Below, piece after piece: positions 3,677 to 33,216 of a stretch of 50,662 nucleotides of DNA. A program made the position numbers and the translations under genes. The notes beneath the pieces were generated by a model. That model did not search any database. It was not told where the DNA came from and saw only the letters and a list, made by a program, of their open reading frames with translations. Position 1 is the first letter of the stretch. Each line of letters starts with the position of its first letter. The DNA is from Dehalococcoidales bacterium (GTDB lineage: Bacteria > Chloroflexota > Dehalococcoidia > Dehalococcoidales > CSSed11-197), in assembly GCA_028716145.1 (NCBI GenBank), contig JAQUQL010000002.1, forward strand, positions 1 through 50,662. Reading direction: 5' to 3'.

Positions 3677-5134
3677 ATGAAAAAAACAGAAGGTTGTCTT
3701 GAGAAAATAGATGATTTCCGGTGGCGGTTACCCTCTCAATACCAGGCGGGCATGCGAGTGCCTGGTATTATATATGCCTCCCGGGAAATGCTGCCCCATA
3801 TAACCGGTGAAAATGTGCTTGGTCAGGTAGCAAATGTTGCCTGTTTGCCTGGTATAATCCGTGCTTCTATGGCAATGCCGGATGTACATTGGGGTTATGG
3901 CTTTCCAATCGGTGGAGTTGCAGCTATGGACTTTGAGAGTGGAGTAGTATCTCCTGGTGGCGTGGGGTTTGACATAAATTGTGGCGTCAGGCTGCTTGGC
4001 ACTGCTATGGATTACTCCTCTATTCAAAGTAGTCTTGAAGAACTGGTGGAGGAGATGTACAAGAGCATTCCGTCAGGTCTTGGTGTTTCTGGCAGTATCA
4101 GGCTGGGGAATAAGGACATGGAAAATGTATTGTCTCAAGGGGCGAGATGGGCGGTTGAGCAGGGGTACGGCAGGGCGGAAGACCTGAGTTTTATTGAGGA
4201 AAACGGTCAGATGAGCGAAGCTGATCCTTGGGCGATTGGTATGCGTGCCAGGGAAAGAGGCGCGTGCCAGCTTGGGACCCTTGGATCGGGGAACCATTTT
4301 GTTGAAATCGGGGTGGTGGACGCTATATACGAACCGGAAGCAGCCAGAGTGATGGGTATAAATATGGAAGGCCAGGTTCTTCTCTGGATACATACTGGAT
4401 CACGCGGATTAGGCCACCAGGTCGCTGATGATTACATAAAGTTAATGCTGGGGGCTATGACAGATTACAATATAAGTGTCCCTGACAGGCAACTGGCGTG
4501 TGCCCCGGTGAGATCAAAAGAAGGTCAGGGTTATCTTGGCGCAATGCGTAGCGCTGCTAATTTCGCCTGGGCAAACAGACAGGTAATTACCCACATGGCC
4601 AGGCAGGCGTTTATTTCAGTGCTTGGCATAAGCAGGGAAACGGCAGGATTGCAGATTATATATGATGTGAGTCATAACATTGCCAAGGTAGAGAATCATG
4701 TTTTGGAAGGTGTTGTTAAAAAGCTATGTGTTCACCGCAAGGGGGCAACCAGGGCTTTTCCTCCCCATCATCCAGATCTGCCGAAAAAATATGCCCACAT
4801 CGGCCAGCCTGTTTTGGTACCGGGTGATATGGGGCGCTATTCCTACATAATGGCGGGTACACAAAAAGCAATGGAAATGACTTTTGGTTCTGCCTGCCAT
4901 GGAGCCGGGAGGCTGAAAAGTCGCAAAGAGGCGAAGAGGGTTATCGATGGCAGAGAAGTTGTCAGGGAAATGGCCAGTCGTGGCATTATCGTTAGGGCAG
5001 GAAGCCTCTCTGCGATCGCGGAAGAAGCCTCCTTTGCCTATAAAGATGTAAGCGATGTGGCTGATGTTATCGCCCAGGCAGGACTAGCGCGGCCCATAGC
5101 AAGAACTCGGCCTGTTGGCGTTATTAAAGGTTAA
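3677..5134 (+). CDS. rtcB: RNA 3'-phosphate/2',3'-cyclic phosphate ligase RtcB
   Basis: 485 aa with RtcB blocks MPDVHWGYGFPIGGV, FDINCGVR, GSGNHFVEIG and SCHGAGR. Confidence 0.95.
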   Translation: MKKTEGCLEKIDDFRWRLPSQYQAGMRVPGIIYASREMLPHITGENVLGQVANVACLPGIIRASMAMPDVHWGYGFPIGGVAAMDFESGVVSPGGVGFDINCGVRLLGTAMDYSSIQSSLEELVEEMYKSIPSGLGVSGSIRLGNKDMENVLSQGARWAVEQGYGRAEDLSFIEENGQMSEADPWAIGMRARERGACQLGTLGSGNHFVEIGVVDAIYEPEAARVMGINMEGQVLLWIHTGSRGLGHQVADDYIKLMLGAMTDYNISVPDRQLACAPVRSKEGQGYLGAMRSAANFAWANRQVITHMARQAFISVLGISRETAGLQIIYDVSHNIAKVENHVLEGVVKKLCVHRKGATRAFPPHHPDLPKKYAHIGQPVLVPGDMGRYSYIMAGTQKAMEMTFGSACHGAGRLKSRKEAKRVIDGREVVREMASRGIIVRAGSLSAIAEEASFAYKDVSDVADVIAQAGLARPIARTRPVGVIKG

Positions 5135-19270: not shown

Positions 19271-20263
19271 ATGGTATGGTTCAAGCTCGCTGTTTGTTGT
19301 GCGATTATTTTAATCGCTGGGACCAGGCTTGCTCGATACGGAGATGCGATTTCTGAAAGAACTGGATTAGGAGGGATGTGGATTGGTCTGGTGTTGATTG
19401 CGCTGGTCACTTCAATGCCGGAAATGGTAACCGGTATAAGCTCAGCAGTAATCGTTGGCCAGCCTGATATGGCGCTGGGCAATTTCTGGGGAAGCTGCAT
19501 TTTTAATCTTACTATACTGGCTGTTTTGGATATTATGAGCCGCCAGGGGCCAGTTTTATCCCTGGCAAATAAACGCAACATATTGCCAGCTATCATGGGA
19601 ATCATATTAATCTCATTTGCCGGCCTGTCCATCATCATTGGGGATGCTGTAACCGGGATATCGATAGGGTGGCTGGCAGTCACCAGCATTATTATTTTCG
19701 GGGGATATCTGTTCGGTATCAGGCAGATGTTTGTATTTGATAAAAAACACCCTGAAGTTAAAACAGAAGAGCCGGCTCAATATGAACATTTAAGCAGTTT
19801 ACGGATCTATGGTGTTTTTCTATTATCGGCACTGGTCATCGTCGGTGGTGGTATATGGCTTTCTCTGATTGGAGATGAAATATCGGTGACCTATAATCTC
19901 AGCGCAAGTTTTGTAGGCAGTTTATTTTTGGCCATCGGTACCTCGCTTCCAGAACTTGTGGTTGCTTTAACCGCATTGAGAATGGGGTGTATCGATCTGG
20001 CAGTGGGGGATATTCTGGGCGCGAATATGTTAAATACCGCCAACATTTTTATAACCGATGTTTTTTATACCCGTGGTCCTCTACTGGCTGAAGTATCCCT
20101 GCGCAATCTCTTCACAGGCGGTACCGTGATTTTGATGACCCTGCTGATCATTGCCGGGTTAAAGTTTAAAATAAAACGCAAGACCTTTGGCTTTGTAAGC
20201 TGGAATACACTGCTGGTCATATTGCTTTATTTGTCAGTCTCACTTGTTTTGTTTTATTATTAG
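19271..20263 (+). CDS. Ca2+/cation antiporter (CaCA family, YrbG-like Na+/Ca2+ exchanger membrane protein)
   Basis: 330 aa, 10 TM. Two alpha-repeats: LVTSMPEMVTGISS and GTSLPELVVALTA, plus GNFWGSCIFNL / GDILGANMLN. Confidence 0.85.
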   Translation: MVWFKLAVCCAIILIAGTRLARYGDAISERTGLGGMWIGLVLIALVTSMPEMVTGISSAVIVGQPDMALGNFWGSCIFNLTILAVLDIMSRQGPVLSLANKRNILPAIMGIILISFAGLSIIIGDAVTGISIGWLAVTSIIIFGGYLFGIRQMFVFDKKHPEVKTEEPAQYEHLSSLRIYGVFLLSALVIVGGGIWLSLIGDEISVTYNLSASFVGSLFLAIGTSLPELVVALTALRMGCIDLAVGDILGANMLNTANIFITDVFYTRGPLLAEVSLRNLFTGGTVILMTLLIIAGLKFKIKRKTFGFVSWNTLLVILLYLSVSLVLFYY

Positions 20264-20379: not shown

Positions 20380-20389
20380 TAGCGGATAC

Positions 20390-20461
20390 GCCCCTGTAGC
20401 TCAGAGGATAGAGCACCGGCCTCCGGAGCCGGTTGCGAGAGTTCGAGTCTCTCCAGGGGCG
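20390..20461 (+). tRNA. tRNA-Arg (anticodon CCG)
   Basis: Acceptor GCCCCTG/CAGGGGC, D arm GCTC/GAGC, anticodon stem CCGGC/GCCGG with loop CTCCGGA, T arm GAGAG-TTCGAGT-CTCTC. CCA is not encoded. Confidence 0.88.
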
Positions 20462-20496
20462 GTGCTTATTAAAAAACAAATTGTGGGAGGCTCACT

Positions 20497-21066
20497 ATAG
20501 TTACCAAACATGATATTATCGGAATCAGGTGGCATGGCCGAGGAGGCCAGGGGGCGGTAACTTCAGCCGAGCTGGTAGCCAGAGCGGCTATTGAAACTGG
20601 TGGATATGCACAGGCATTTCCGGCATTCGGGCCGGAAAGGCGCGGTGCACCGGTTCTTGCTTTTGACCGTATCAGTTCTGGTCCTATACACAGCCGCGCG
20701 GAAGTTAGTGACCCTAATATAGTGGTAGTTCTTGATGCCCGTTTGATGGAGGCTGTAAATGTAACCTCCGGGTTGAAAGACGGCGGGCTCTTGATCGTCA
20801 ACACTCGGCTAGAGCCAGGCGAAATCAGCATTCGTTACGAAAATCGCTTCCGGGTAGCTACAGTTGATGCTAACACAATAGCGCGGGAAGAGCTTGGTGT
20901 CCCCATTGTCAATACCACAATGATGGGAGCTTTGATAAAAGCCAGCGGTTTACTCAAACCGGAAGATCTGGTTGAACCACTTAAAGACCGGTTTGGCCGC
21001 CTGGCAGAAAAGAATATTAATGCCATGAAACGCGCTTATGAAGAAACCAGGATAAAGGAGCAGTAA
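20497..21066 (+). CDS. porC: Pyruvate/2-oxoacid:ferredoxin oxidoreductase gamma subunit, apparently with a non-canonical start codon
   Basis: The in-frame translation from 20473 gives ...IVTKHDIIGIRWHGRGGQGAVTSAELVARAAIETGGYAQAFPAFGPERRGAPV..., the conserved PorG N-terminus. No ATG/GTG/TTG is in frame before the GTG at 20722. A GGGAGG SD (20485-20490) lies 6 nt before the ATA at 20497. Confidence 0.7.
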   Translation: MVTKHDIIGIRWHGRGGQGAVTSAELVARAAIETGGYAQAFPAFGPERRGAPVLAFDRISSGPIHSRAEVSDPNIVVVLDARLMEAVNVTSGLKDGGLLIVNTRLEPGEISIRYENRFRVATVDANTIAREELGVPIVNTTMMGALIKASGLLKPEDLVEPLKDRFGRLAEKNINAMKRAYEETRIKEQ

Positions 21067-21067
21067 A

Positions 21068-21361
21068 TTGGTTAAACCAGAAAACGAATTTACCTGGCGC
21101 GACATAGAAATAGGGGCTATTGTAACCACGCCTGGTAATGCCATCCAGTATCGTACAGGAGACTGGCGGAGCCAGAAGCCTGAGTACATATTTGATCGCT
21201 GTATCAAGTGTGGAGTATGCGCCATATACTGCCCGGAAGGGTGTATAAACCAGAATGAAGAAGGGCATTTTGTTGCTGATATGTATTATTGCAAAGGTTG
21301 TGGCATCTGCGCTACCGAGTGCCCCGTATATGTGATAAGCATGGTAGAGGAGGTGGAATAA
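21068..21361 (+). CDS. porD: Pyruvate:ferredoxin oxidoreductase delta subunit (2x[4Fe-4S] ferredoxin)
   Basis: 97 aa, TTG start with an AAGGAG SD. CIKCGVCAIYCP and CKGCGICATECP. Confidence 0.88.
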   Translation: MVKPENEFTWRDIEIGAIVTTPGNAIQYRTGDWRSQKPEYIFDRCIKCGVCAIYCPEGCINQNEEGHFVADMYYCKGCGICATECPVYVISMVEEVE

Positions 21362-22536
21362 TGGCCAAAAGAGTTGGTATTGAAACCTCCCTGGCTATCA
21401 GTGAAGTGGTTGCTGCCTGTGATGTTGATGTTGTAGCCGCTTATCCGATTACCCCTCAAACCCATATCGTGGAGCATCTGGCAGATCTGGTCGCAAACGG
21501 CAAACTTGATGCTGAGTATATACCGGTTGAGTCGGAGCATTCGGCGATGAGTGCATGCCTTGGCAGTGTTGCTGCCGGCGCCAGAACTTTTACCGCTTCA
21601 GCCGGTCAGGGTCTTGAGCTTATGCACGAAGTTCTTTTTGTGGCTTCTGCAATGAGGCTGCCGGTTATTATGGCGGTTACCAATCGGGCTGTTTCTTCTC
21701 CGTTGAGTGTTTGGGGAGACCATTCCGATGTAATGGCAACCAGGGACGTAGGATGGATACAGTTGTTTGTAGAAAACGGCCAGGAAGCTGTTGATAATAC
21801 GATTTGTGCTTTTAAAATGGGTGAAGCTAAAAATGTACTACTTCCGGTAATGGTAAATCTGGACGGATTCCATCTTTCTCATATGATCGAGCCGATTACT
21901 ATACCGGAACGGGAAGAAATAAGCCGCTTCCTGCCTCCCTTTGATTACCCTCTGCCACTTCATCCTGATAAGCCGGTAGCAATGGGAGATTTTGCTCCAC
22001 CGGTAATTTTCAGTGAGGCAAAATGGGCACAGGAAATAAACATTCGCGATTCTTATGAGACAATTATACAAACCTGGCAGGAATTCGGCCAGCAGTTTGG
22101 ACGTTACTATCAACCTGTAGAAAAGTACTGCACTGAAGGGGCTGAGACTCTGCTCCTTACCATGGGCAGTTTCAGTGAAACCGCGATGACAGCCATAGAC
22201 AATCTGCGTGAGCAAGGCCAAAAAGTTGGTTTGGTTCGTATACGTTTGTGGCGTCCGTTTCCGTTCGAAGAACTCAGAAAAGCCGTTGGCTCAGCAAAAA
22301 CGCTGATCGTTTTCGACCGGGCTATCTCAGTTGGCGGCCCTGGAGGACCGGTTGTCAGTGAAGTTAAAGCTGCTCTTTACAACGAGCCACAAAAACCAAA
22401 TGTGGTCAGTTTTGTCGGCGGGCTTGGCGGCAGAGACGTAACCCGTGAAGGCTTTGAGGAGATAATAACCCGCGGGCAGGAAATAGCCGAACAAGGCAGC
22501 CCGAACGAGTTTGAAATTTACGGTGTGAGGGAATAA
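21361..22536 (+). CDS. porA: Pyruvate:ferredoxin oxidoreductase alpha subunit
   Basis: The ATG at 21361 (GAGGAGG SD) overlaps the porD stop by 1 nt. AAYPITPQTHIVE, ESEHSAMSAC. The ORF-track start at 21289 is inside porD. Confidence 0.9.
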   Translation: MAKRVGIETSLAISEVVAACDVDVVAAYPITPQTHIVEHLADLVANGKLDAEYIPVESEHSAMSACLGSVAAGARTFTASAGQGLELMHEVLFVASAMRLPVIMAVTNRAVSSPLSVWGDHSDVMATRDVGWIQLFVENGQEAVDNTICAFKMGEAKNVLLPVMVNLDGFHLSHMIEPITIPEREEISRFLPPFDYPLPLHPDKPVAMGDFAPPVIFSEAKWAQEINIRDSYETIIQTWQEFGQQFGRYYQPVEKYCTEGAETLLLTMGSFSETAMTAIDNLREQGQKVGLVRIRLWRPFPFEELRKAVGSAKTLIVFDRAISVGGPGGPVVSEVKAALYNEPQKPNVVSFVGGLGGRDVTREGFEEIITRGQEIAEQGSPNEFEIYGVRE

Positions 22537-23466
22537 ATGATAGGTCAGAGCGTATATGTTCCACGCCTGCTTTCGGAAATTGAGAGCCTGGCTCCAGGAC
22601 ATAGAGCCTGCATCGGTTGTGGCGAAGTGCTGGCAATCAGGCAGGCATTTAAGGCAATTGGTCGGGATGCGGTTGTGGTTAATGCTACCGGCTGCATGGA
22701 AATCATAGCCAGCCAGCTGCCATATACTTCATGGCGATTGCCGTGGATACATACTCTTTTTGAGAACACTGCTGCTGTTGCATCCGGAGTTGAAGCCGGG
22801 CTTAAAGCAATGAAAAGAAAAGGGCGTTACGATCATCCTGATACCAAAGTTGTAGCCATCGCCGGGGATGGAGGAACGGTAGACATAGGATTACAGGCGC
22901 TGTCCGGTGCCCTTGAACGCGGGCACAACCTCCTCTATATTTGTTTCGACAATGAAGGTTACATGAACACCGGTGTCCAGCGTTCATCTGCAACTCCGTA
23001 TGGAGCTACTACCACCACTTCACCCGCCGGAAAGCAGAGCATTGGCCAGCTCAGCTGGAAGAAGGACTTGCCGGCAATAGCAGTTGATCACCGTATACCA
23101 TATGTTGCTACTGCATGCCCCAGCTTTCCTATTGACCTGGTTGAAAAAGTTAAAAAGGGAGTAGCTACAAAAGGGCCGGCATATATACATGTGTTTTCAG
23201 GATGTCCAACCGGTTGGGGGTGCGCTACCAACTTGACCATTAAACTGGGGCGTCTTGCGGTGGAGACTGGTGTTTTTCCTCTATATGAAGTAGAAAATGG
23301 TAAATATAAAATGAGTTACAAACCGGAAACACTCAGGCCTATTACTGATTACATGAAACCACAGCGGCGTTTCCGTCATTTGACTGAAGATGTCATTAAA
23401 ATGATTGAAAAGCGTGTCGCCGAAGAATATTACAAACTCTTGGAGAAAGCCGAATGTCAAAAATAA
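22537..23466 (+). CDS. porB: Pyruvate:ferredoxin oxidoreductase beta subunit (TPP-binding)
   Basis: 309 aa. CIGCGEVLAIR, GDGGTVDIGLQALS, NEGYMNTGVQ. Confidence 0.9.
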   Translation: MIGQSVYVPRLLSEIESLAPGHRACIGCGEVLAIRQAFKAIGRDAVVVNATGCMEIIASQLPYTSWRLPWIHTLFENTAAVASGVEAGLKAMKRKGRYDHPDTKVVAIAGDGGTVDIGLQALSGALERGHNLLYICFDNEGYMNTGVQRSSATPYGATTTTSPAGKQSIGQLSWKKDLPAIAVDHRIPYVATACPSFPIDLVEKVKKGVATKGPAYIHVFSGCPTGWGCATNLTIKLGRLAVETGVFPLYEVENGKYKMSYKPETLRPITDYMKPQRRFRHLTEDVIKMIEKRVAEEYYKLLEKAECQK

Positions 23467-23921
23467 GCGTTAAGAATGATACCCTGGCTAAAATTCTTGA
23501 CCGGTATGATAAAGATAAAGGGCAACTTATTTCAATACTGCAGGATGTGCAGGCGGAATATAACTATCTGCCCAGAGAAGCCGTAGAATTCGTCAGCAGT
23601 CAACTTGATGTGCCGTTAAGTCAGGTATACAGTGTAGCCACATTTTTCAAGGCGTTCTCTTTAAAACCCAGAGGTCGTCATACTGTTCATGTGTGCATGG
23701 GCACTGCCTGTCACGTAAGAGGTGCCGCGCAGATACTTCAACAGATGCAAAATGAAATGAAAATAAGCTGCGGTGACACCACTGAAGACGGTAAGTTTAC
23801 CCTTGAAAGCGTAGCCTGTGTTGGCGCATGCGCCCTTGGCCCCCTGGTTGTGGTTGATGGCGAGTATGCCGGACAGATGACGGTTAACAAAGTAAAACCG
23901 CTACTGGAGAAATACGATTAG
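23454..23921 (+). CDS. NuoE/HydC-like [2Fe-2S] thioredoxin-fold subunit
   Basis: 155 aa with the C-x4-C...C-x3-C pattern (VCMGTACHVRG ... CVGACALGP). Overlaps the porB end by 13 nt. Confidence 0.85.
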   Translation: MSKISVKNDTLAKILDRYDKDKGQLISILQDVQAEYNYLPREAVEFVSSQLDVPLSQVYSVATFFKAFSLKPRGRHTVHVCMGTACHVRGAAQILQQMQNEMKISCGDTTEDGKFTLESVACVGACALGPLVVVDGEYAGQMTVNKVKPLLEKYD

Positions 23922-23923
23922 CC

Positions 23924-25789
23924 ATGAGTGATAAAATTTGTAAACTGACCTCTATAGAAGAACTCGAAAAAAAGCGCGCGCTTGTACTTGCTGAGCGTCC
24001 GGAAATATCGACTGTGACCGTCTGCTGCGGTACTGGCTGCCAGGCATTCGGTGGGCAAAAAGTTGCACAGGCTTTTCAGGAGGCAATTACCGCACATAAT
24101 CTGAAGGATCAGGTTGTGGTAAAAACTACCGGTTGTCATGGTTTCTGCGAAAGAGGACTGTTGGTGGTTATAAGGCCTCAAAACATATTTTACCAGCATG
24201 TCAGGCTAGAAGACGTTGAAGAGATTATCAGCGAAACAGTTGTAAACGGTAGGGTAATCGAAAGACTGCTTTACATAACACCTGACGGAAGCAGTAAGAT
24301 TACTTCCGAAGAAGACGTGCCATTTTATAAAAAGCAGATGAGGCTTGTGTTTGGAGCCAATGGATATATCGACCCGACCGAAATTGATGACTATATTGCT
24401 ATTGGTGGATACTCAGCTCTGGCTAAAGTGCTTTCTTCCATGAAGCCGGAACAGGTTATTGAGGAAGTAGGGGCCGCCGGCTTGCGAGGCAGGGGAGGGG
24501 GAGGTTTTCCGGCAGCTACCAAGTGGAAAAGCACCAGGGAAGCCCATGGCGAGACCAAATATGTGATCTGCAATTGTGATGAAGGTGATCCGGGTGCTTT
24601 CATGGACAGAAGCTTGATGGAAGGCAATCCTCATAACATTCTTGAAGGCATGATCATTGGAGCCTTTGCTGCAGGTTCAAGCAAAGGGTTCGTTTACATA
24701 CGGAATGAATATCCTCTAGCGGTTAAAAACACTGAGATAGCAATAAGACAGGCAGAAGAATACGGTTTGCTGGGTGAAAATATTCTTGGTTCAGGGTTCA
24801 GTTTCAGGATAGTCATTAACCGTGGAGGCGGTGCTTTTGTGTGCGGTGAATCAACTGCGCTAATGGCATCGATCGAAGGCAAGGTCGGGGAACCGAGAGC
24901 CAAATATGTACATACTTCTGAAAAAGGTTTGTTTGATTGCCCTACGGTTCTTAACAATGTAGAAACCTGGGCCAATGTACCCCTCATAATTAATCGGGGG
25001 TCTGAATGGTATGCTTCTATAGGAACTGAAAACAGTAAGGGGACCAAAATATTTTCCCTGGTAGGAAAAATAAACAACACCGGTCTGGTAGAAGTTCCTA
25101 TGGGTATTTCGCTCAGAGAAATCATATATGAAATCGGCGGGGGGATACCGGACGGCAAAAAGTTTAAAGCGGTGCTTACCGGCGGTCCTTCTGGCGGTTG
25201 TATACCCGAGAGCTTGCTGGACCTGCCAGTTGACTTTGACGAGCTGACAAGGGTTGGTTCCATGATGGGTTCCGGTGCAATGATCGTCATGGACGAAAAC
25301 AACTGCATGGTTGATATTGCTCGTTATTTCCTCAAGTTCCTGGAGGAGGAATCCTGCGGAAAATGTGTTCCCTGCCGGGAAGGCTTGAAGGGGATGAGAG
25401 AGATCCTGGATGATATCAGCGAAGGTAAGGGAGACGAATCCCAGTTGGATCTCCTTGAAGAGATGTCGGCAGTAATCCAGGATGGCTCTCTGTGCGGTCT
25501 GGGGCAAACTGCCCCCAATCCTGTTCTGACTACTCTCAAGTATTTCAGGGATGAGTATCTTGCCCACATCGTAGATAAAAAATGTCCGGCAGGTGTGTGC
25601 AAAGCCCTCATTAGCTATAACATCGTGGATGATAATTGTACAGCCTGCAGACTTTGCGTTAAGGCGTGCCCATCTGAGGCTATTGAGTTTATCGGAAAAA
25701 AAATACCGGTTGTTATTCACCAGGAAAAATGTACCAAGTGCGGCGCATGTATGGAAGCGTGCAAGTTTAAAGCGGTAGAAATAAGGTAG
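23924..25789 (+). CDS. NuoF/HydB-like NAD(H)- and FMN-binding flavoprotein with an N-terminal [2Fe-2S] domain and C-terminal 2x[4Fe-4S]
   Basis: 621 aa. GRGGGGFP, CNCDEGDPGAF, ESCGKCVPCREG, then CTACRLCVKACP and CTKCGACMEAC. Confidence 0.88.
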   Translation: MSDKICKLTSIEELEKKRALVLAERPEISTVTVCCGTGCQAFGGQKVAQAFQEAITAHNLKDQVVVKTTGCHGFCERGLLVVIRPQNIFYQHVRLEDVEEIISETVVNGRVIERLLYITPDGSSKITSEEDVPFYKKQMRLVFGANGYIDPTEIDDYIAIGGYSALAKVLSSMKPEQVIEEVGAAGLRGRGGGGFPAATKWKSTREAHGETKYVICNCDEGDPGAFMDRSLMEGNPHNILEGMIIGAFAAGSSKGFVYIRNEYPLAVKNTEIAIRQAEEYGLLGENILGSGFSFRIVINRGGGAFVCGESTALMASIEGKVGEPRAKYVHTSEKGLFDCPTVLNNVETWANVPLIINRGSEWYASIGTENSKGTKIFSLVGKINNTGLVEVPMGISLREIIYEIGGGIPDGKKFKAVLTGGPSGGCIPESLLDLPVDFDELTRVGSMMGSGAMIVMDENNCMVDIARYFLKFLEEESCGKCVPCREGLKGMREILDDISEGKGDESQLDLLEEMSAVIQDGSLCGLGQTAPNPVLTTLKYFRDEYLAHIVDKKCPAGVCKALISYNIVDDNCTACRLCVKACPSEAIEFIGKKIPVVIHQEKCTKCGACMEACKFKAVEIR

Positions 25790-25800
25790 CGGAGTAGTAA

Positions 25801-26526
25801 ATGGTAACGCTTAAAATAGACGGAAGAGAAATCACAGCAGATTCCGGGAAAACGGTTCTTGAGGCCGCCCGGGAGAATAATATCTATATTCCAACTCTTT
25901 GTGTGAATGAAGCGGTAGCCGCTTATGGAGCTTGCCGGCTTTGCATGGTTGAGGTAACCAGGGGTAATCGCAAGAGGCTGGTTGCTTCGTGTTTGTACGA
26001 AGTTGCAGAAGGACTGGTGGTGGATACGCAAACGGAAAGGGTAGTAAATATAAGGCGCATGGTAATGGAACTGCTTCTTGCCCGCTGCCCAAATTCTTCC
26101 GAGGTTATTGATATGGCAAGGAACCTCGGGGTCGACAAAAGTCGTTTTCAACCAGAAAATCAAGACAACTCATGCGTTTTATGCGCTCTTTGCACCCGGG
26201 TTTGCCGGGAGGTTGTCGGCAAGAGTGCTATCAGCCTGGTCAGCAGGGGGACCGACAGACAGGTTGCGCTTCCCTTCTGTGATGACAGCGATGCCTGTAT
26301 AGCCTGCGGTTCATGTGTTTATGTTTGCCCCACCAACGCCATTAAGATGGAGGACAGGGGAGATGTACGCATCATAACCTGGCCAAGCTCTGCTCACGAA
26401 TTCAAGATGAAGAAGTGTGCCTCATGTGGCAGTCATTTTGCCCCGGAAAAGCAGATAGCCTTCATGATGGCAAAAAGTGGGCTCGAGGCTGAAAAGTTCG
26501 AGCTTTGTATGAACTGCCGTCCATGA
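25801..26526 (+). CDS. NuoG/HydA N-terminal-like Fe-S protein ([2Fe-2S] + 2x[4Fe-4S]) with no catalytic domain
   Basis: 241 aa. Plant-type [2Fe-2S] Cys at C34/C45/C48/C64, CVLCALCTRVC, CIACGSCVYVCP, C-terminal CxxC...CxxC. No H-cluster or molybdopterin domain follows. Confidence 0.8.
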   Translation: MVTLKIDGREITADSGKTVLEAARENNIYIPTLCVNEAVAAYGACRLCMVEVTRGNRKRLVASCLYEVAEGLVVDTQTERVVNIRRMVMELLLARCPNSSEVIDMARNLGVDKSRFQPENQDNSCVLCALCTRVCREVVGKSAISLVSRGTDRQVALPFCDDSDACIACGSCVYVCPTNAIKMEDRGDVRIITWPSSAHEFKMKKCASCGSHFAPEKQIAFMMAKSGLEAEKFELCMNCRP

Positions 26527-26575: not shown

Positions 26576-26649
26576 CGGGGTGTAGCGCAGTTGGCTAGCG
26601 CGCAGCGTTTGGGACGCTGAGGCCGGAGGTTCGAGTCCTCTCACCCCGA
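26576..26649 (+). tRNA. tRNA-Pro (anticodon UGG)
   Basis: Acceptor CGGGGTG/CACCCCG, anticodon stem CAGCG/CGCTG with loop TTTGGGA, T arm GGAGG-TTCGAGT-CCTCT. CCA is not encoded. Confidence 0.88.
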
Positions 26650-26671: not shown

Positions 26672-27121
26672 ATGAAATTAGAAGAGTATAGAGCAAAAAG
26701 GGATTTCTCAAAAACCCTGGAGCCTGACGGCTCTGGAACAGGGAGCAACTCTCGACGTCCTCGGTTTGTTATTCAGGAACACCATGCCAGCCACCTCCAT
26801 TATGATTTCAGGCTTGAAATAGACGGAGTGCTGAAAAGCTGGGCAGTACCAAAAGGAGTTCCGCTGGAAAACGGCATCAGAAGGCTGGCGGTTCAAACAG
26901 AAGACCATCCTTTAGATTACATAAACTTTGAGGGTGAAATCCCCGAAGGCCAGTATGGAGCCGGGAACGTGCTTATTTTTGACGCTGGCACCTTTGATCT
27001 CGCCAGCCTGGAGTCCAAAAAGCTTGAATTTGAGCTAAAAGGCAACAGATACACTGGTAAATATGTGCTTATTAATACCGGTGGGGACAACTGGCTGATT
27101 TTTAAAAAGAAGGAATCTTAG
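26672..27121 (+). CDS. Stand-alone LigD-type 3'-phosphoesterase (PE) domain protein
   Basis: 149 aa. RFVIQEHHASHLHYDFRLEIDGVLKSWAVPKGVP and GEIPEGQYGAG are the LigD-PE signatures. Confidence 0.85.
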   Translation: MKLEEYRAKRDFSKTLEPDGSGTGSNSRRPRFVIQEHHASHLHYDFRLEIDGVLKSWAVPKGVPLENGIRRLAVQTEDHPLDYINFEGEIPEGQYGAGNVLIFDAGTFDLASLESKKLEFELKGNRYTGKYVLINTGGDNWLIFKKKES

Positions 27122-27127
27122 CTCCAG

Positions 27128-27439
27128 ATGACAGAACCTCTCCCGGAAAACAAAGCCGATTTGATTGTTAACGGTCAGCGAGTTGCCAATAATACGTTTG
27201 TTGATTCATTTATTGCCGGCGTAGCAGACGGACTGGTTTCCCCACTATCAGGTCGCAGTTGTTATCGGGCTTTGAACATAGTTATAGAAGAAGAAAAATG
27301 CCTGGTAGAATTTGATGGTGCAAGTGCTTCAACCAATGATTTTGTTGATAATATGATAAAGACAACACTGATAGGTATGGCTGGTGTTCTCGGTATCAGC
27401 GGGACAGTAGAAAGGTTGACTTTAAGAGTTAACAATTGA
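27128..27439 (+). CDS. Hypothetical soluble protein (103 aa)
   Basis: A tightly spaced ORF between the PE gene and mrpE with codon usage like its neighbours. I recognise no motif. Confidence 0.5.
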   Translation: MTEPLPENKADLIVNGQRVANNTFVDSFIAGVADGLVSPLSGRSCYRALNIVIEEEKCLVEFDGASASTNDFVDNMIKTTLIGMAGVLGISGTVERLTLRVNN

Positions 27440-27466: not shown

Positions 27467-28072
27467 ATGACGAATAGCAAGAAAAAATTAATAAACGGCG
27501 GAAAAAAGAGTTCAGGTGTGTTGGGTTTCATGCTTCAGTTTGTGCCGCTCTATATATTCTGGCTGGTACTGTCTGAGCATTATACACCGTTTTACCTGAT
27601 CGCCGGAGCTTTGATAAGTGCACTGATTGTTATTTTTAACCGGGAAATGTTTTCCAGTCTTCTTCCCACCGATCGACTTGGCAAATTCACACCAGGTTCA
27701 GCTTTAAAAACAGCTTTTTACCTGATTAAATACGTTCCATGGCTTCTGCTTCAAATAGCCAGGGACAACCTGCTTGTAGCCTATCTGGTTATTCATCCCA
27801 GAATGCCGATAAATCCCAGGATTTTGAGTTTTAAAGCCAGCTACCGGCGATCGGCAAGTCAGGTTATCCTGGCAAATTCCATAACACTTTCTCCAGGTAC
27901 GATGACGGTACTTCTGGAAAACAATCGTTACCTTGTCCACGCGCTAATTCCTTCTTCGTGCGATAATCTCACCAGCGGAGAAACCCAGGATAGGGTGGGG
28001 AAAATATTTGACGAAGTGCCGGAAGGCCCACCTCAATCGGCATGTGGATATACTTTTGGGGAGATTGAATGA
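27467..28072 (+). CDS. Mrp/Mnh antiporter subunit E-like (MbhA-like)
   Basis: 201 aa. The ILANSITLSPGTMTV block is typical of MnhE. Its stop overlaps the next start. Confidence 0.75.
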   Translation: MTNSKKKLINGGKKSSGVLGFMLQFVPLYIFWLVLSEHYTPFYLIAGALISALIVIFNREMFSSLLPTDRLGKFTPGSALKTAFYLIKYVPWLLLQIARDNLLVAYLVIHPRMPINPRILSFKASYRRSASQVILANSITLSPGTMTVLLENNRYLVHALIPSSCDNLTSGETQDRVGKIFDEVPEGPPQSACGYTFGEIE

Positions 28073-28344
28073 TGGAAGGCTTTATTGTGTTTGCAGCCTT
28101 CTTTATTCTTCTTCTTAACGGGATTTGTGTATATCGCCTGGTTAGGGGTCCAAGCGTTTTTGACCGTGCAGTTGCTGTAAGTGTTATTGGCAACAATGCT
28201 GTTATTCTTATCGTATTGGTTGGGTTTATATTCGGGCGAATAAACATGTTCTTTGATATAGCGGTAGCCTATGCGCTGCTAAACTTTATAATTTCTATCG
28301 CGCTTGGAAAATACTTTGAACACCGGGGTAAACAGACGCAATGA
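28069..28344 (+). CDS. Mrp/Mnh subunit F-like (MbhB-like)
   Basis: 91 aa, 3 TM. The RLVRGPSVFDRAVAVSVIG motif is typical of MnhF. Confidence 0.75.
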   Translation: MMEGFIVFAAFFILLLNGICVYRLVRGPSVFDRAVAVSVIGNNAVILIVLVGFIFGRINMFFDIAVAYALLNFIISIALGKYFEHRGKQTQ

Positions 28345-28715
28345 ACATTCTGGCTGGGATATTAATCGCCGCCGGGCTGTTTTTTCTGGCGGTAAGCTGT
28401 ATAGGCCTGGTGCGCCTGCCGGATTTCTACACACGTAATCATGCCGCAGGAAAATCAGGAACATTGGGGGCCATTTTAATTCTGGTTGGCCTGGCTATTT
28501 ATAACGGATTTGATATAACAGTACTCAGGTTGTTTATAATTTTACTCTTTTTTGCAGTTACCAGTCCGACTGCTACTCATGCAGTTGCCAGAGCCGCCTA
28601 CCGGTTGGGACTCGAACCATGGACGCTGAAAAACCAGAATCCTGAAATATGCAATGTTGAGACCAGGGAAGCAGATGAAGGTGCAGAACGCGAAACCAGC
28701 GAGGATACAGTGTGA
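28341..28715 (+). CDS. Mrp/Mnh subunit G-like (MbhC-like)
   Basis: 124 aa. GLVRLPDFYTRNHAAGKSGTLG is the MnhG signature. Confidence 0.8.
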   Translation: MNILAGILIAAGLFFLAVSCIGLVRLPDFYTRNHAAGKSGTLGAILILVGLAIYNGFDITVLRLFIILLFFAVTSPTATHAVARAAYRLGLEPWTLKNQNPEICNVETREADEGAERETSEDTV

Positions 28716-28960
28716 TGCTTGCCAATTTTGATTTCTGGCTGCTTATATTTTTGATCGGAATGGCGTTAGTAGCGCTTAATCTGCGCGATCTGATAGCTGC
28801 CGTGCTGGTGCTTTCAGCGTATAGTTTTTGCATGGCATTGCTGTTTGCTTTTCTGGGAGCGGTTGACGTGGCACTGGTTGAAGCAACGCTGGGTGGGGGT
28901 GTCACTGGTGTGATATTAATAGCAGCTATTCTCCTTATGAAAAGGAGGTCCAGGAATTGA
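28712..28960 (+). CDS. DUF4040 / MbhD-like small membrane subunit (MrpA C-terminal-fragment-like)
   Basis: 82 aa, 3 TM. GAVDVALVEATLGGGVTG. Confidence 0.65.
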   Translation: MMLANFDFWLLIFLIGMALVALNLRDLIAAVLVLSAYSFCMALLFAFLGAVDVALVEATLGGGVTGVILIAAILLMKRRSRN

Positions 28961-29235
28961 GGGCAGCATCAGCAATAATAATAGCGGCTTTTGCGGCATT
29001 AATGATTTATGCGACTTCGGGCTTGCCTGTTCCGGGAGACCCTGATGCACCCGGATCCGGGCATGTTTCGCAATATTATATTGAACATTCAATGGAAGAT
29101 ACCCATACGCCAAATATAGTAACTGCTGTTCTTGCTGATTATCGTGGCTTTGATACCCTGGGTGAAACGCTGGTGATTTTTACAGCCAGCCTTGCCTGTG
29201 TACTTATTCTGGCAAGGAGGATCGACCGTGATTAA
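28957..29235 (+). CDS. MbhE-like small membrane subunit (MnhB N-terminal-region-like)
   Basis: 92 aa. NIVTAVLADYRGFDTLGETLVIF. Confidence 0.65.
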   Translation: MRAASAIIIAAFAALMIYATSGLPVPGDPDAPGSGHVSQYYIEHSMEDTHTPNIVTAVLADYRGFDTLGETLVIFTASLACVLILARRIDRD

Positions 29236-29665
29236 ACGCTACGACAGCGTTATAGTCGATATAACCTGCCGGATAATGGTTCCTTTCATTCAGTTGTTTG
29301 CAATATACGTTATTTTTCATGGCCATTACAGCCCTGGAGGAGGATTTCAGGGAGGGGTGCTTCTGGCTTCAAGTATGATTTTGCACCGTTTGAGCCTGGG
29401 ACAAAAAGAATCCTATGCAAAACTTGCTCCCCGTAACGCATCCATATTGGGGACTGGCGGGATGTTTCTTTTTATGCTGACTGCGATCCTCCCGATATTC
29501 TTTGGTGGGATGTTTTTAGATTACAGTTTTCTGCCGATACCAGGTTTGGAGTCTGCCATGCTCAGGTATTATGGGATACTCATAGTCGAAATCTGGATCG
29601 GTATAGCTGTTTTTGGCTGCCTGGTAGTTATCTTTGACAGGCTGACTGAAAGAAGATGGGGTTAA
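29228..29665 (+). CDS. Mrp/Mnh subunit B-like (MbhF-like)
   Basis: HGHYSPGGGFQGGVLLAS. The GTG at 29228 has an AGGAGG SD and overlaps the previous stop (GTGATTAA). The ORF-track ATG at 29192 is less likely. Confidence 0.75.
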   Translation: MIKRYDSVIVDITCRIMVPFIQLFAIYVIFHGHYSPGGGFQGGVLLASSMILHRLSLGQKESYAKLAPRNASILGTGGMFLFMLTAILPIFFGGMFLDYSFLPIPGLESAMLRYYGILIVEIWIGIAVFGCLVVIFDRLTERRWG

Positions 29666-29666
29666 C

Positions 29667-30032
29667 ATGGGAGATTTAACGTTTCATTACAGTTATATCA
29701 TGATAATCATCCTTCTGGTTATCGGGTTGTGGGGCATGCTGGGGAAACGTAACCTTATTAAAAAAATAATTGGCCTCAATATTTTCCAAACCTCTATTTT
29801 TCTGTTTTTTATCAAAGGCGCATTAAAAGAGGGGGCCACGGTTCCGGTAATTGATCCTGAATTGGGGCTTGAAGCAGCAAGCTATTTTAACCCATTGCCG
29901 CACGTAATGATTCTCACAGCCATCGTTGTATCGGTAGCCACTACCGGGGTTGCCCTGGCTTTGATGCTGACAATATACCGCAATTATTCCAGCCTGGAAG
30001 AAGGCGACATCCTGGAGAGAATGGGCAAGTGA
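29667..30032 (+). CDS. Mrp/Mnh subunit C-like (NuoK-like; MbhG-like)
   Basis: 121 aa, 3 TM, with a conserved mid-membrane Glu context. Confidence 0.75.
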   Translation: MGDLTFHYSYIMIIILLVIGLWGMLGKRNLIKKIIGLNIFQTSIFLFFIKGALKEGATVPVIDPELGLEAASYFNPLPHVMILTAIVVSVATTGVALALMLTIYRNYSSLEEGDILERMGK

Positions 30033-31501
30033 TTGAGCATCTGCCGGCACTAATACCGATAACTCTTATCCTGTTTGCATTCATAGCCGGAGTGCTTGGA
30101 GTTATGCAGTTCAAGCTTAGCCGCAATGTGGCGATGCTGGGAGCTTTAGCCGCATTTGTATTGTCGGTTACCGGCACTATCCAGGTACTGCAAACCGGGC
30201 CGATGCATTACAGTTTCGGCAGTTGGCCGCCGCCGTATGGGATCGAATTTGTGCTGGATACCCTTTCAGCATTTATGGTACTGGTGATTACGGGCATAGG
30301 ATCAATTTTGCTTATGTTCCCAACCAAGCCCGGCTTTATGATTGATGAGCAAAAGGGAGCTACGGTGTACACAGTAGTGCTCATGCTCATGGCAGGGCTA
30401 TGCGGAATGGTGCTGGCTGGAGACTTGTTTAATCTTTACGTGTTCCTCGAAATTTCCTCCCTTTCGACTTTTGCGCTGATTTCTCTTGGGGGCGGTAAAG
30501 CAGCTGTTGCCAGTTTCCGTTATCTGATAATGGCCAGCATCGGTGGATGTTTTTATCTGCTGGGCGTCGGGTTTATATATTTTTCGGTTGGGTCGGTCAA
30601 TATGGCAGATGTTTTACAATTGCTACCGGCTGTATATGATTCGCCTTCGGTTATCGGCGGGGCCATTCTTATGGTTACAGGACTTTGCGTGAAGATGGCT
30701 TTGTTCCCCCTCCACACCTGGCTGCCGGATTCTGATACCTATGCGCCTCCGGTTGTAGCGGCATTTTCAGCAGCAGTGCAAATAGAGGTATCTGCGTATG
30801 TAATCATCAGGTTGATACTTAACGTATTTTCCCCTGAGTTTATAATCGGCTTGACGCCGATTACAGATATAATCGCCTGGATATCGGCAGCCGGTATCAT
30901 AATTGCGTCAATTCTTGCAGTAGCCCAGCAGAACTTCCGGAGGATGCTTGCTTACAGCAGTGTAGCCCAGATCGCTTATGTAGGACTTGGAATCGGGCTT
31001 GCCAATCCACTCGGGATAGTGGGCGGCATTTTTCACATCATGGCTCATTCATTGATGAAAGGGAGCCTGTTTCTTATTGCCGGTGGCATTCGTCATCATA
31101 CCGGGATTTGGAATATAAACGATTTTCAGGGTCTTGGACGTCGAATGCCCTGGACGATCGGCGCGTTTACTATTGCGGCAATGGGCATGATAGGTATTCC
31201 GCCAACTGCTGGATTTTTCAGCAAGTGGTATTTGCTTTTGGGCAGTATAGAGGGCGACCAATGGGTTTTTGTAGCTGTAATACTGATAAGCAGCCTTTTA
31301 AACGCAGTATATTTCTTTCGAATTATCGAAAAAGCGTTTTCACCTCCGGCAGAATCAACGGCCTCTGTTAATAAAACTGGTGAATTACCGAAGAGAATGC
31401 TTGCACCTATTTTGATTCTGGCAATCGGGACACTCATAGTAGGGGCGTTGAATGTGCTGGTTGTAAATGAGCTGATCATGCCGGTTGTGGAAGGGTTATA
31501 A
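30029..31501 (+). CDS. Antiporter-like subunit 1 (MrpD / NuoN/M family)
   Basis: 490 aa, about 14 TM. FPLHTWLPDS and HSLMKGSLFL blocks of proton-conducting membrane transporter subunits. Confidence 0.85.
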   Translation: MIEHLPALIPITLILFAFIAGVLGVMQFKLSRNVAMLGALAAFVLSVTGTIQVLQTGPMHYSFGSWPPPYGIEFVLDTLSAFMVLVITGIGSILLMFPTKPGFMIDEQKGATVYTVVLMLMAGLCGMVLAGDLFNLYVFLEISSLSTFALISLGGGKAAVASFRYLIMASIGGCFYLLGVGFIYFSVGSVNMADVLQLLPAVYDSPSVIGGAILMVTGLCVKMALFPLHTWLPDSDTYAPPVVAAFSAAVQIEVSAYVIIRLILNVFSPEFIIGLTPITDIIAWISAAGIIIASILAVAQQNFRRMLAYSSVAQIAYVGLGIGLANPLGIVGGIFHIMAHSLMKGSLFLIAGGIRHHTGIWNINDFQGLGRRMPWTIGAFTIAAMGMIGIPPTAGFFSKWYLLLGSIEGDQWVFVAVILISSLLNAVYFFRIIEKAFSPPAESTASVNKTGELPKRMLAPILILAIGTLIVGALNVLVVNELIMPVVEGL

Positions 31502-31504
31502 AAC

Positions 31505-32992
31505 ATGAGCGGATTTTCATCATTTCTTCCCATAGCAGCAATAATAGTATCGCTGATAGCTTTTGTGCTTATAATTCTGTTTGATAAAAAACCTAATGCC
31601 CGTGAAGCTGTTACCATAATTGCCGCTATATCCAAATTTGGAATCGTGTTTTCCATGGTTGGGTATGTGTTGGATGGAAGATATCCCCAAATGAGGCTAT
31701 TCAGTCTTTCACCAGGCATTGATCTTGCCTTGAGAGTGGATGAAGCGGGGATTATTTTTGCACTGCTTGCTTCTCTGCTCTGGATCGTAACCTCATTTTA
31801 CTCTATTGGATATATGCGGGGGCTATCGGAAACCCGCCAGACCCGATTTTTTGCCAGTTTTGCATTGTGCCTTTCCTCTACCATCGGCCTGGCTTTTTCG
31901 GCTAACTTGCTTACCTTCTACCTGTTTTACGAAATTCTTACCATTGCAACTTATCCCCTGGTTACCCATAAAGGAACGCCGGAGTCGATAAAGGCAGGAA
32001 GAAAATATCTTGCTTATCTTCTTACCGGTGGGGTGATACTGCTGGTAGCAATCGTTTACACTTATCAGATCTCTGGCACTCTGGATTTTAAGCCCGGAGG
32101 AATTTTACCAGCCGGGGCAAGCTTCGCCGAGCTGGCAGTATTATTCAGCCTTTTCCTGGTGGGGTTTGGTTTTAAAGCGGCGATAATACCACTGCACAGC
32201 TGGTTACCTTCGGCTATGGTCGCACCAACACCGGTAAGCGCGCTTCTGCATGCGGTGGCTGTAGTTAAAGCCGGTGTGTTTGGTCTGGTGCGTGCTACCG
32301 GATTTGTCATTGGCCCTGAGGTACTGGCCGACATTGGGGCAGGTGGCGTGATGGCGATCCTGGCTTCTGTTACGATTGTTATTGCTTCGCTCCTGGCTTT
32401 CCGCCAGGATAATCTCAAGCTTAGATTGGCTTATTCAACCGTGGCTCACCTGTCATATATCGTATTAGGGCTTGCCTTATTTTCTGATTATGCCTGGAAC
32501 GGAGCCTTGCTGCATATCGTCAATCATGGCGTGATGAAGATAACCCTCTTTTTTTGCGCTGGTGCTATTTACGTAAAAACCCATCTGACCAATATCAGCG
32601 ATCTTGATGGAATAGGCAGAAAGATGCCTTTGACGATGTCGGCTTTTACTATAGCTACAATGGGGCTTGCTGGTATGCCTCCGGTTGCTGGATTTGTTTC
32701 TAAATTCTTGCTGGTAGAAGGGGCGTTTGCTGACGGCCGGGCGGTATTCGGAGTGGTGTTGCTTATCAGCGGTTTGCTTAATGCAGGATACTTCTTTCCG
32801 ATCGTATACCGGGCTTTTTTCAAGAGCCCTTCTGATAACACTGGCAAAAATGAGGCGCCAGCCCTGATGCTGATACCCATCATGGTTACTGCCGGTTTAT
32901 CCTTGCTGTTCGGTTTGTTTCCGGATGGAATCTTCCACTTCTTCAATCTGGCCCAAAACGCAGTCAGTCAATTAGCAGGGGGTATCTGGTGA
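31505..32992 (+). CDS. Antiporter-like subunit 2 (MrpD / NuoM family)
   Basis: 495 aa. IPLHSWLPSAMVAPTPVSALLHAVAVVKAG and NHGVMKITLFFCAG. Confidence 0.85.
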   Translation: MSGFSSFLPIAAIIVSLIAFVLIILFDKKPNAREAVTIIAAISKFGIVFSMVGYVLDGRYPQMRLFSLSPGIDLALRVDEAGIIFALLASLLWIVTSFYSIGYMRGLSETRQTRFFASFALCLSSTIGLAFSANLLTFYLFYEILTIATYPLVTHKGTPESIKAGRKYLAYLLTGGVILLVAIVYTYQISGTLDFKPGGILPAGASFAELAVLFSLFLVGFGFKAAIIPLHSWLPSAMVAPTPVSALLHAVAVVKAGVFGLVRATGFVIGPEVLADIGAGGVMAILASVTIVIASLLAFRQDNLKLRLAYSTVAHLSYIVLGLALFSDYAWNGALLHIVNHGVMKITLFFCAGAIYVKTHLTNISDLDGIGRKMPLTMSAFTIATMGLAGMPPVAGFVSKFLLVEGAFADGRAVFGVVLLISGLLNAGYFFPIVYRAFFKSPSDNTGKNEAPALMLIPIMVTAGLSLLFGLFPDGIFHFFNLAQNAVSQLAGGIW

Positions 32993-33216
32993 AGAAAAAA
33001 CTCGTCATCGTTGGCGTTCTGCTTGCCATGTTTGTTTTGGCAGACAGCCTGTTTCACCTCACCCACGGAGAAGGCTGGTGGGCGCAGATACCGGCATTTT
33101 TTGCATTTCTTGGTTTTGTTGGAGGTCTTCTGATTTTCTTTTTGGCAAAGATTGTAATCAGCGCGCTTTTGCATCGTAACGAGGATTATTATGAGTCTGA
33201 TAGAAATAATCAATAG
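32989..33216 (+). CDS. Small 2-TM membrane protein embedded in the mrp cluster
   Basis: 75 aa. The GTG start overlaps the upstream TGA (GTGA), indicating translational coupling. No recognisable family. Confidence 0.5.
   Translation: MKKKLVIVGVLLAMFVLADSLFHLTHGEGWWAQIPAFFAFLGFVGGLLIFFLAKIVISALLHRNEDYYESDRNNQ

Follow-up and report, generated by a model that had tools for sequence, protein, structure and literature searches.

A Por-Bfu gene cluster in a Dehalococcoidales bacterium: a pyruvate oxidoreductase predicted to be coupled to an electron-bifurcating module

Introduction

This study concerns seven co-oriented genes (porG-porD-porA-porB-bfuC-bfuB-bfuA) at positions 20497-26526, on the + strand, of a stretch of DNA from a Dehalococcoidales bacterium (GenBank assembly GCA_028716145.1, contig JAQUQL010000002.1, positions 1 to 50,662). 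The whole stretch of 50,662 nucleotides that was analysed is called the window below. The genes place a set of pyruvate:ferredoxin oxidoreductase (POR) subunits next to the three subunits of a Bfu module. Such an arrangement has already been described under the name "Por-Bfu (A-G)", as an uncharacterised member of the Type 2 Bfu enzymes (Schut et al. 2022, PMC9304861). It was described in Dehalococcoides mccartyi, with two flanking tRNA genes included, and the case made for it comprised comparable transcript levels across the seven genes together with the tRNA flanks (PMC9304861). Its proposed function is either the bifurcating oxidation of pyruvate or the synthesis of pyruvate from NADH (reduced nicotinamide adenine dinucleotide) plus ferredoxin (PMC9304861).

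A solved enzyme is available for comparison. WorABCSL is a bifurcating tungsten aldehyde oxidoreductase (WOR) from Acetomicrobium mobile (PDB 9MQX; PMC12318220). Its WorA subunit carries the clusters A1, A2 and A4 but no A3, and a zinc finger takes the place of the A5 cluster of other BfuA proteins. The A4 cluster takes electrons from the ferredoxin-like subunit of a separate catalytic module, and this partner subunit is recruited by a C-terminal alpha-helix of WorA acting as an adaptor (PMC12318220). In the Bfu paradigm, ferredoxin is an obligatory co-substrate (PMC9304861, PMC11829005, PMC12318220). In WorABCSL, NAD+ and ferredoxin are reduced only together, even though each of the two reactions is exergonic (PMC9304861).

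BfuB was defined with InterPro by a Nuo51 flavin mononucleotide (FMN) domain, an SLBB domain, an NADH_4Fe-4S domain and a C-terminal 4Fe-4S ferredoxin-type domain (PMC9304861). The sites B2-B5 are absent from the non-bifurcating homologues NuoF, HoxF and FdsB, and deletion of B3/B4 abolishes bifurcation by HydABC of T. kivui (PMC11829005).

Results

The cluster in the window is a clean further example of the predicted Por-Bfu class and no new kind of system. Like Por-Bfu of D. mccartyi 195, it has the same seven genes, a BfuA with A1, A2 and A4 only, two tRNA flanks and a place within the Dehalococcoidia. It differs in the organism, which is an uncultured member of the Dehalococcoidales, and Por-Bfu itself is a bioinformatic prediction only. 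The seven genes probably constitute one operon for a Por-Bfu enzyme, in which PorABDG would be coupled to the electron-bifurcating module BfuABC. The gene content, cofactor ligands, subunit family membership and conserved synteny that were observed are given below; the full set of Fe-S, FMN and thiamine pyrophosphate (TPP) ligands is intact across the seven proteins. The identical locus is present in several public assemblies. The nearest species representative is a Dehalococcoidales metagenome-assembled genome (MAG) with 88% BfuA identity (L001).

The POR subunits

PorG (20497-21066, +, 189 aa) is the gamma subunit with the coenzyme A (CoA)-binding domain III (Pfam POR, 6.9e-40; best NCBIfam model, POR gamma). 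PorD (21068-21361, +, 97 aa) is the ferredoxin-like delta subunit with 2x[4Fe-4S] (Pfam Fer4 families; NCBIfam PorD), and its CxxCxxCxxxC motifs at residues 45 and 75 were invariant in 56 sequences. PorA (21361-22536, +, 391 aa) is the alpha subunit (POR_N, 1.9e-70; PFOR_II, 1.7e-29; NCBIfam PorA_Arch, 1.7e-139). PorB (22537-23466, +, 309 aa) is the beta subunit with the TPP site and the proximal [4Fe-4S] cluster (TPP_enzyme_C). Its sequence shows a GDG…N TPP-binding motif, and C25, C28, C53 and C223 were invariant in 59 sequences. PorGDAB is a predicted four-subunit POR set, with the TPP domain, the PorB proximal-cluster cysteines and the PorD 2x[4Fe-4S] all present. PorD also has a ninth cysteine (C59, in CPEGC), conserved in 50 of the 56 sequences.

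The substrate was considered with the NCBIfam models. PorA, PorD and PorG scored under their equivalog cut-offs, and the VOR, oxalate and phenylglyoxylate models also scored well on Por subunits. Both results would suit an enzyme that links another 2-oxoacid (2-oxoisovalerate, 2-oxoglutarate, an aryl-pyruvate or oxalate) to NAD(H) and ferredoxin. Such a substrate is nevertheless highly improbable: the best match of every Por subunit was a pyruvate-type model, PorB passed its equivalog cut-off (410.3 vs 405), and the D. mccartyi homologues are annotated in the literature as pyruvate:ferredoxin oxidoreductase (PMC6005880, PMC9304861).

BfuB and BfuC

BfuC (23454-23921, +, 155 aa) is a NuoE/HydC-like protein with the C1 [2Fe-2S] cluster (2Fe-2S_thioredx, PF01257, 6.6e-51; 7t2r_C, 1.1e-43). 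Its ligands C81, C86, C122 and C126 were invariant. BfuB (23924-25789, +, 621 aa) is NuoF/HydB-like and contains B5 [2Fe-2S], an FMN/NAD(H) site, B1 [4Fe-4S], B2/Zn and a C-terminal B3/B4 pair (2x[4Fe-4S]). Pfam assigned Complex1_51K (PF01512), SLBB (PF10531), NADH_4Fe-4S (PF10589) and, at residues 567-618, Fer4 families, together with a weak 2Fe-2S_thioredx-like stretch at the N-terminus. The ligands are C34, C39, C71 and C75 for B5 and C478, C481, C484 and C524 for B1, the FMN motif is GRGGGGF, and the B3/B4 motifs (CxxCxxCxxxC) start at residues 572 and 603. The B2/Zn residues C461, S499, H548, C554 and C559 aligned to C438, C476, H525, C531 and C536 of 7t2r_B. The B2/Zn histidine and cysteines were invariant in 62 relatives; position 499 was Thr in 51, Cys in six, Ser in four and Val in one.

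Full-length matches of BfuB were obtained with chains of characterised bifurcating enzymes (7t2r_B, 2.7e-232; 9mqx_B, 9.8e-232; 7q4v_B, 3.8e-227), whereas matches to complex-I NuoF (~1e-99 to 1e-107) covered the core only. HydABC and NiFe-HydABCSL (7P5H, 7Q4V, 8A6T, 7T2R) share with the window full-length BfuB and BfuC homologues with the B1-B5 and C1 ligands. They differ in having H-cluster or NiFe subunits, whereas BfuA of the window stops after the ferredoxin-like domain. HoxEFU and NuoEFG have a common ancestry with the window proteins, but HoxF and NuoF have no B2, B3, B4 or B5 sites (PMC11829005). The sequence features of the Bfu family were all found: the BfuB domain set, the B5 and B2/Zn sites, a NuoE-like bfuC gene beside bfuB, and a BfuA with 2Fe-2S and 4Fe-4S ferredoxin-type domains (PF13510, Fer4), whose ligand cysteines were conserved in 80 sequences. 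By sequence, the NuoE-like and NuoF-like proteins make up a true HydBC/BfuBC core, which is predicted to bifurcate. An earlier annotation of the window made from the letters alone (the original prediction) had proposed a HydABC-type pair, with an extra N-terminal [2Fe-2S] domain and a C-terminal 2x[4Fe-4S] domain on the NuoF-like protein. Pfam, the ligand motifs and the full-length matches agree with it.

The original prediction had also supposed that the complex needs no free ferredoxin. This part finds no support in the window, as BfuB retains the ferredoxin-reducing B3/B4 and the Bfu paradigm makes ferredoxin an obligatory co-substrate.

BfuA

BfuA (25801-26526, +, 241 aa) is NuoG-N-like and short. 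It contains A1 [2Fe-2S], the [4Fe-4S] clusters A2 and A4, and a C-terminal 4-Cys zinc-finger-like motif. Fer2_4 and 2x Fer4 were assigned by Pfam, and no H-cluster or molybdopterin domain was detected by it. The CxxCxxCxxxC motifs are at residues 125 and 166. No HxxxCxxCxxxxxC motif occurs in the protein, whose sole histidines are residues 199 and 212. These results bear out the domain content given for the third subunit by the original prediction.

The closest solved relative was WorA (9mqx_A, 247 aa; 2.7e-41, residues 3-240 aligned to 6-234). A Foldseek search with an AlphaFold model of BfuA also ranked 9mqx_A first (TM 0.48), which weakly corroborates the sequence match. C206, C209, C236 and C239 form a conserved CxxC…CxxC pair, and the protein ends two residues past the last cysteine (…CMNCRP). 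The Type 2 Bfu features are present in BfuA: A1, A2 and A4 are kept, A3, A5 and a catalytic domain are lacking, and the C-terminal 4-Cys motif is found. Judged by its sequence, the 241-aa protein belongs to the short Type 2 form of BfuA that has no catalytic domain, and its C-terminal motif is zinc-finger-like. According to the original prediction, the third subunit of HydABC-type enzymes normally carries the catalytic site; BfuA has none. Its absence is not exceptional, since Type 2 Bfu enzymes are defined by it and one of them has been solved (WorA, 9MQX).

WorABCSL thus resembles the window in its BfuBC cofactor sites, in a short BfuA (247 vs 241 aa) lacking A3 and A5, and in the C-terminal 4-Cys zinc-finger motif. 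Its catalytic module is separate and feeds A4 via a ferredoxin-like subunit, as would be the case in the window by analogy. It differs in its tungstopterin WOR in place of a TPP-dependent POR, in the WorA adaptor helix, and in a polyferredoxin nanowire, of which no sign was seen in the window.

Public annotations call the 241-aa family HoxU or NuoG. An assignment to HoxEFU/NuoEFG was rejected: the HoxE and HoxU equivalog cut-offs were missed (HoxU, 141 vs 333), and the His-ligated cluster motif, which is retained in HoxU and NuoG, is lacking. No hoxYH or nuo membrane genes are adjacent to the cluster. BfuA has lost the A3 motif, and C96 stands where its His ligand would be (LLLARCP vs LLL..HP). 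This position was Cys in 66 of 80 relatives and is Ala in WorA.

Conservation of the gene order

Relatives were collected by a scan with the BfuA alignment, with one genome per GTDB species, which gave 80 loci. The seven window proteins were mapped onto these loci by tblastn. Eighteen loci had too little upstream DNA, and 62 were informative. The por genes were directly upstream in 59 of these 62. The complete order porGDAB-bfuCBA, on one strand, was found in 52, while seven had porGDAB and then bfuA, with no canonical bfuB. The porB-bfuC junction was overlapping or at most 30 nt long in 50 of the 52 full loci (start positions being approximate). Thirteen of the 52 are labelled Syntrophales, Desulfobaccales, Thermodesulfobacteriota, "delta proteobacterium", Myxococcales or unclassified, with BfuA identities of 44-53%, and the por-linked loci cover Dehalococcoidia and Desulfobacterota-like lineages. 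With por upstream in 59 of 62 loci, the por-bfu association is far beyond chance. In the 52 full loci, neighbouring genes overlap or lie a short distance apart, and no Por-Bfu fusion was seen there; no database-wide search for fusions was made.

In three loci there is no por: L042 has only bfuCBA, L046 has an FdhA-like gene as well, and at L061 a CCG-domain protein lies alongside. Neighbour-joining (NJ) trees of PorA, BfuB and BfuA were broadly congruent. In the NJ tree, BfuB of L042 and L046 nested within the por-linked Dehalococcoidia clade, so these two loci look secondarily derived. L046 is peculiar in structure (L046:5275-12948): two tandem bfuC-bfuB-like pairs precede a short BfuA, after which comes an FdhA-like gene in two open reading frames. 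This split may reflect a selenocysteine codon or a frameshift.

A hydrogenase or formate dehydrogenase (FDH) as the partner of the Bfu module was rejected. No hydrogenase was found beside the BfuA locus among the 62 informative loci, and a single one (L046) is FDH-linked. In the window, Pfam scans of the neighbours detected no hydrogenase or FDH genes within ~20 kb, and the neighbours are of a housekeeping type. The three downstream genes are therefore not usually accompanied by such enzymes, and the original prediction withstands its own refutation test on this point. Comparative genomics supports POR as the partner of the Bfu module, and a physical association is predicted. The seven-gene synteny and the proposed role of POR as the catalytic partner are supported by this evidence; the idea is not new, since it was published as Por-Bfu (PMC9304861).

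Variant loci

Some relatives depart from the full set. Four loci (L059, L060, L066, L068) contain por and bfuA only, with BfuA directly after porB and neither BfuC nor BfuB. In two of them (L066 and L068), the same tRNA-Arg and tRNA-Pro lie on either side. In three others (L067:4575-6491, L075:8043-9965, L080:7969-9891), a 638-640-aa protein is found between porB and bfuA instead of BfuCB. This protein has a NuoF-type 4Fe-4S domain, Fer4_20 and Pyr_redox_2, that is, an NfnL/GltD-like FAD (flavin adenine dinucleotide)/NAD(P)H module, and its best PDB match was NfnA (9n5u_A, 4e-118). In 19 por-linked loci, mostly from Dehalococcoidaceae MAGs, BfuB ends right after the B2/Zn site (H…C….C) and has no B3/B4 (L003, L005, L019, L022, L024, L027, L028, L030, L031, L033-L038, L044, L049, L051, L063).

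BfuA stays beside por even when BfuBC is absent or replaced, which points to BfuA as the POR-proximal subunit. We tentatively propose, with somewhat less than even confidence, that the short BfuA is a POR-dedicated electron adaptor carrying an interchangeable pyridine-nucleotide module, in a modular family of NAD(P)-linked POR enzymes. As part of this tentative proposal, four forms would follow BfuA: the full BfuBC, as in the window, a BfuB without B3/B4, an NfnL/GltD-type flavoprotein, or none. A BfuB without B3/B4 would give a plain pyruvate:NAD+ enzyme, and the full BfuBC could bifurcate. The persistence of BfuA with por where BfuBC is absent or has given way to an NfnL/GltD-like flavoprotein, the B3/B4-less BfuB and the ATA start of porG described below were not found in the literature searched.

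The variants also bear on whether the enzyme of the window bifurcates at all. The electrons of POR could all pass via BfuA to FMN and NAD+, with B3/B4 being vestigial or regulatory, as in the version of the original prediction that needs no free ferredoxin. The 19 natural BfuB proteins without B3/B4 and the NfnL/GltD-type NAD(P)H flavoproteins in place of BfuBC are in line with such a non-bifurcating pyruvate:NAD+ oxidoreductase, as is the fact that the reaction is exergonic without coupling. Precedents exist in the 2-oxoacid:ferredoxin oxidoreductase (OFOR) family. The pyruvate:NADP+ oxidoreductase of Euglena is a pyridine-nucleotide-linked member of it. In place of a BfuABC module, this enzyme and phenylglyoxylate dehydrogenase use either one FAD/FMN reductase subunit or a CPR-like domain fused to the enzyme, and they are not ferredoxin-coupled bifurcating enzymes. 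The NADH-dependent phenylglyoxylate dehydrogenase is an OFOR-family enzyme with a built-in pyridine-nucleotide module, and its PadE, PadF, PadG and PadI models matched PorG, PorD, PorA and PorB (NCBIfam). For the window, an enzyme of this kind is nonetheless improbable. All B2-B5 ligands are kept in its BfuB, and they are conserved in 43 of the 62 relatives. The reduction of NAD+ and ferredoxin is obligately coupled in WorABCSL despite being exergonic (PMC9304861), and the loss of bifurcation on B3/B4 deletion in T. kivui HydABC shows that the domain is functional in the family (PMC11829005).

Gene junctions and the porG start codon

The genes are tightly packed. The porG/porD gap is 1 nt, porD and porA overlap by 1 nt, porA and porB are adjacent, and porB and bfuC overlap by 13 nt. 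The gaps are 2 nt for bfuC/bfuB and 11 nt for bfuB/bfuA. The coordinates and all junctions match those first read from the sequence, with a qualification for the start of porG. No in-frame ATG, GTG or TTG occurs ahead of 20722 in the porG frame. The codon at 20497 is ATA, preceded by GGGAGG at a distance of 7 nt (region 20484-20524). Sixteen relatives have ATG, GTG or TTG at the aligned position; ATA at this place is common to the window and the two closest relatives (L001, ~4690-4700; L002, ~830-845). porG therefore probably initiates at ATA. Public gene calls for the same locus disagree (106, 114 or 180 aa). Apart from the two flanking tRNAs, no riboswitch or other RNA element was found in the operon with Rfam.

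Flanking tRNA genes and neighbourhood

Two tRNA genes on the + strand were detected with ARAGORN and Rfam: tRNA-Arg(CCG) at 20389-20462, 34 nt upstream of porG, and tRNA-Pro(TGG) at 26576-26649, 49 nt downstream of bfuA. Among the 19 Dehalococcoidia-type loci checked, tRNA-Arg(CCG) was found ~30 nt upstream of porG in all 19 and tRNA-Pro(TGG) ~50 nt downstream of bfuA in 18. Neither flank was seen at the Desulfobacterota-like loci. The spacing of ~30 nt between tRNA-Arg and porG leaves no room for a promoter, which makes a tRNA-mRNA-tRNA co-transcript plausible. In Dehalococcoidia, tRNA-Arg, por-bfu and tRNA-Pro may thus be transcribed as one unit. A promoter-like site (TTGTCA-18-TATTAT, 20231-20260, +) lies upstream of tRNA-Arg. 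It was found by a consensus scan only (10/12 matches), and 13 sites of this kind were counted in the region vs 8.9 expected. This weak evidence makes it a candidate promoter of a tRNA-Arg/por-bfu transcript.

Pfam identified RtcB, YidC, IleRS, HtrA, a PALP enzyme and a Na/Ca exchanger upstream of the cluster in the window, and LigD phosphoesterase, an Mrp antiporter, glutamate dehydrogenase, FtsZ/FtsA, PGK and DXS downstream. Two genes lie between tRNA-Pro and the Mrp operon (26672-27439): the first encodes a stand-alone LigD 3'-phosphoesterase domain protein (149 aa), and the second a 103-aa protein that had no Pfam or NCBIfam match. This pair is kept in other assemblies of the locus. The Mrp-type cation/proton antiporter operon just downstream (27467-34960) is complete, with MnhE, F and G, MbhD, MbhE, MnhB, a NuoK-like subunit and three NuoL/M/N-like subunits. 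It contains no hydrogenase or Nuo catalytic subunits.

Discussion

In the Por-Bfu reading, the seven proteins would form one physical complex. By analogy with WorABCSL, electrons would pass from TPP in PorB to the PorB [4Fe-4S] cluster and the two PorD [4Fe-4S] clusters. PorD, the predicted electron exit of POR, would then deliver them to A4 of BfuA, from where they would move through A2 to A1 [2Fe-2S]. From A1, they would reach the B1-FMN-C1 "flavobicluster" of BfuBC and be split or merged there. NAD(H) would exchange hydride at FMN, and ferredoxin (Fd) would exchange single low-potential electrons via C1 and B3/B4. The net reaction would be 2 pyruvate + 2 CoA + NAD+ + 2 Fd(ox) <-> 2 acetyl-CoA + 2 CO2 + NADH + 2 Fd(red).

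The energetics were estimated by illustrative arithmetic with the potentials tabulated in PMC9304861. The oxidative direction was exergonic by ~42 kJ per 4 electrons. For Dehalococcoidia that assimilate acetate, it may be the reverse direction that is useful, i.e. pyruvate synthesis, with NADH standing in for half the reduced ferredoxin required by a plain POR. This would be feasible only at low pyruvate, because the pyruvate couple then rises to ~-350 to -380 mV, whereas the donors NADH and 2 Fd(red) have a mean potential of -390 mV. We infer that the energetics of the reverse direction fit an anabolic role in these organisms.

Several points weigh against the Por-Bfu reading. In the oxidative direction, its energetic rationale is not compelling, because pyruvate (-500 mV) can reduce both NAD+ and ferredoxin without bifurcation. 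Ferredoxin coupling is not universal in the group, because 19 relatives have the BfuB without B3/B4. WorA runs 13 residues past the aligned end, and BfuA has no C-terminal adaptor helix of the type with which WorA recruits its partner. The AlphaFold model of BfuA, made from a 15-sequence alignment, is a moderate one (pLDDT 70, with the Fe-S region 120-165 below 50). The original prediction knew of no characterised example, and no purification, activity or structure of any Por-Bfu was found in the literature searched, although the arrangement itself was predicted in 2022 (PMC9304861). Finally, in the complexome of D. mccartyi CBDB1, PorA, PorB and PorG co-migrate while the adjacent Bfu subunits are absent from the protein list. 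With a coverage of 1-3 peptides, this is weak negative evidence. In favour of the reading count the structural precedent of WorA, the broadly congruent trees, the same hypothesis reached independently for D. mccartyi, and the CBDB1 homologues cbdbA684 and cbdbA685, which are made as proteins (PMC6113397).

The complexome and the missing adaptor helix would also suit an operon that encodes two enzymes, POR reducing free ferredoxin and a stand-alone BfuABC acting as a soluble ferredoxin:NAD+ oxidoreductase, with a link that is metabolic rather than physical. PorD would then be a normal ferredoxin-donating subunit, and the bfuCBA genes of L042 have no por nearby. We consider two separate enzymes unlikely. 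A2 and A4 of BfuA would lead nowhere in a stand-alone BfuABC, and a BfuA that served BfuBC only would hardly be expected to stay by por at loci where BfuBC has been lost or replaced. The immediate upstream position of por across phyla and the porB/bfuC overlap also speak for a coupled Por-Bfu enzyme, and the BfuB tree suggests that L042, like L046, is derived from a por-linked ancestor.

If Por-Bfu works as proposed, the pyruvate/acetyl-CoA node would be tied directly to the NADH and ferredoxin pools in many strict anaerobes, among them organohalide-respiring and subsurface Dehalococcoidia and syntrophic Desulfobacterota. Synthesis of pyruvate from acetyl-CoA and CO2 would then cost half as much reduced ferredoxin, which would be relevant to organisms living near the thermodynamic limit. 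The enzyme would, moreover, serve to test why Bfu enzymes use coupling when the reactions are exergonic without it. If the modular reading is true, the POR family concerned would be broader than the "Por-Bfu" catalogued from BfuB searches, and its B3/B4-minus and BfuBC-minus forms would be built-in natural controls for the bifurcation mechanism. The value lies in these natural variants as experimental handles, rather than in the cluster of the window itself.

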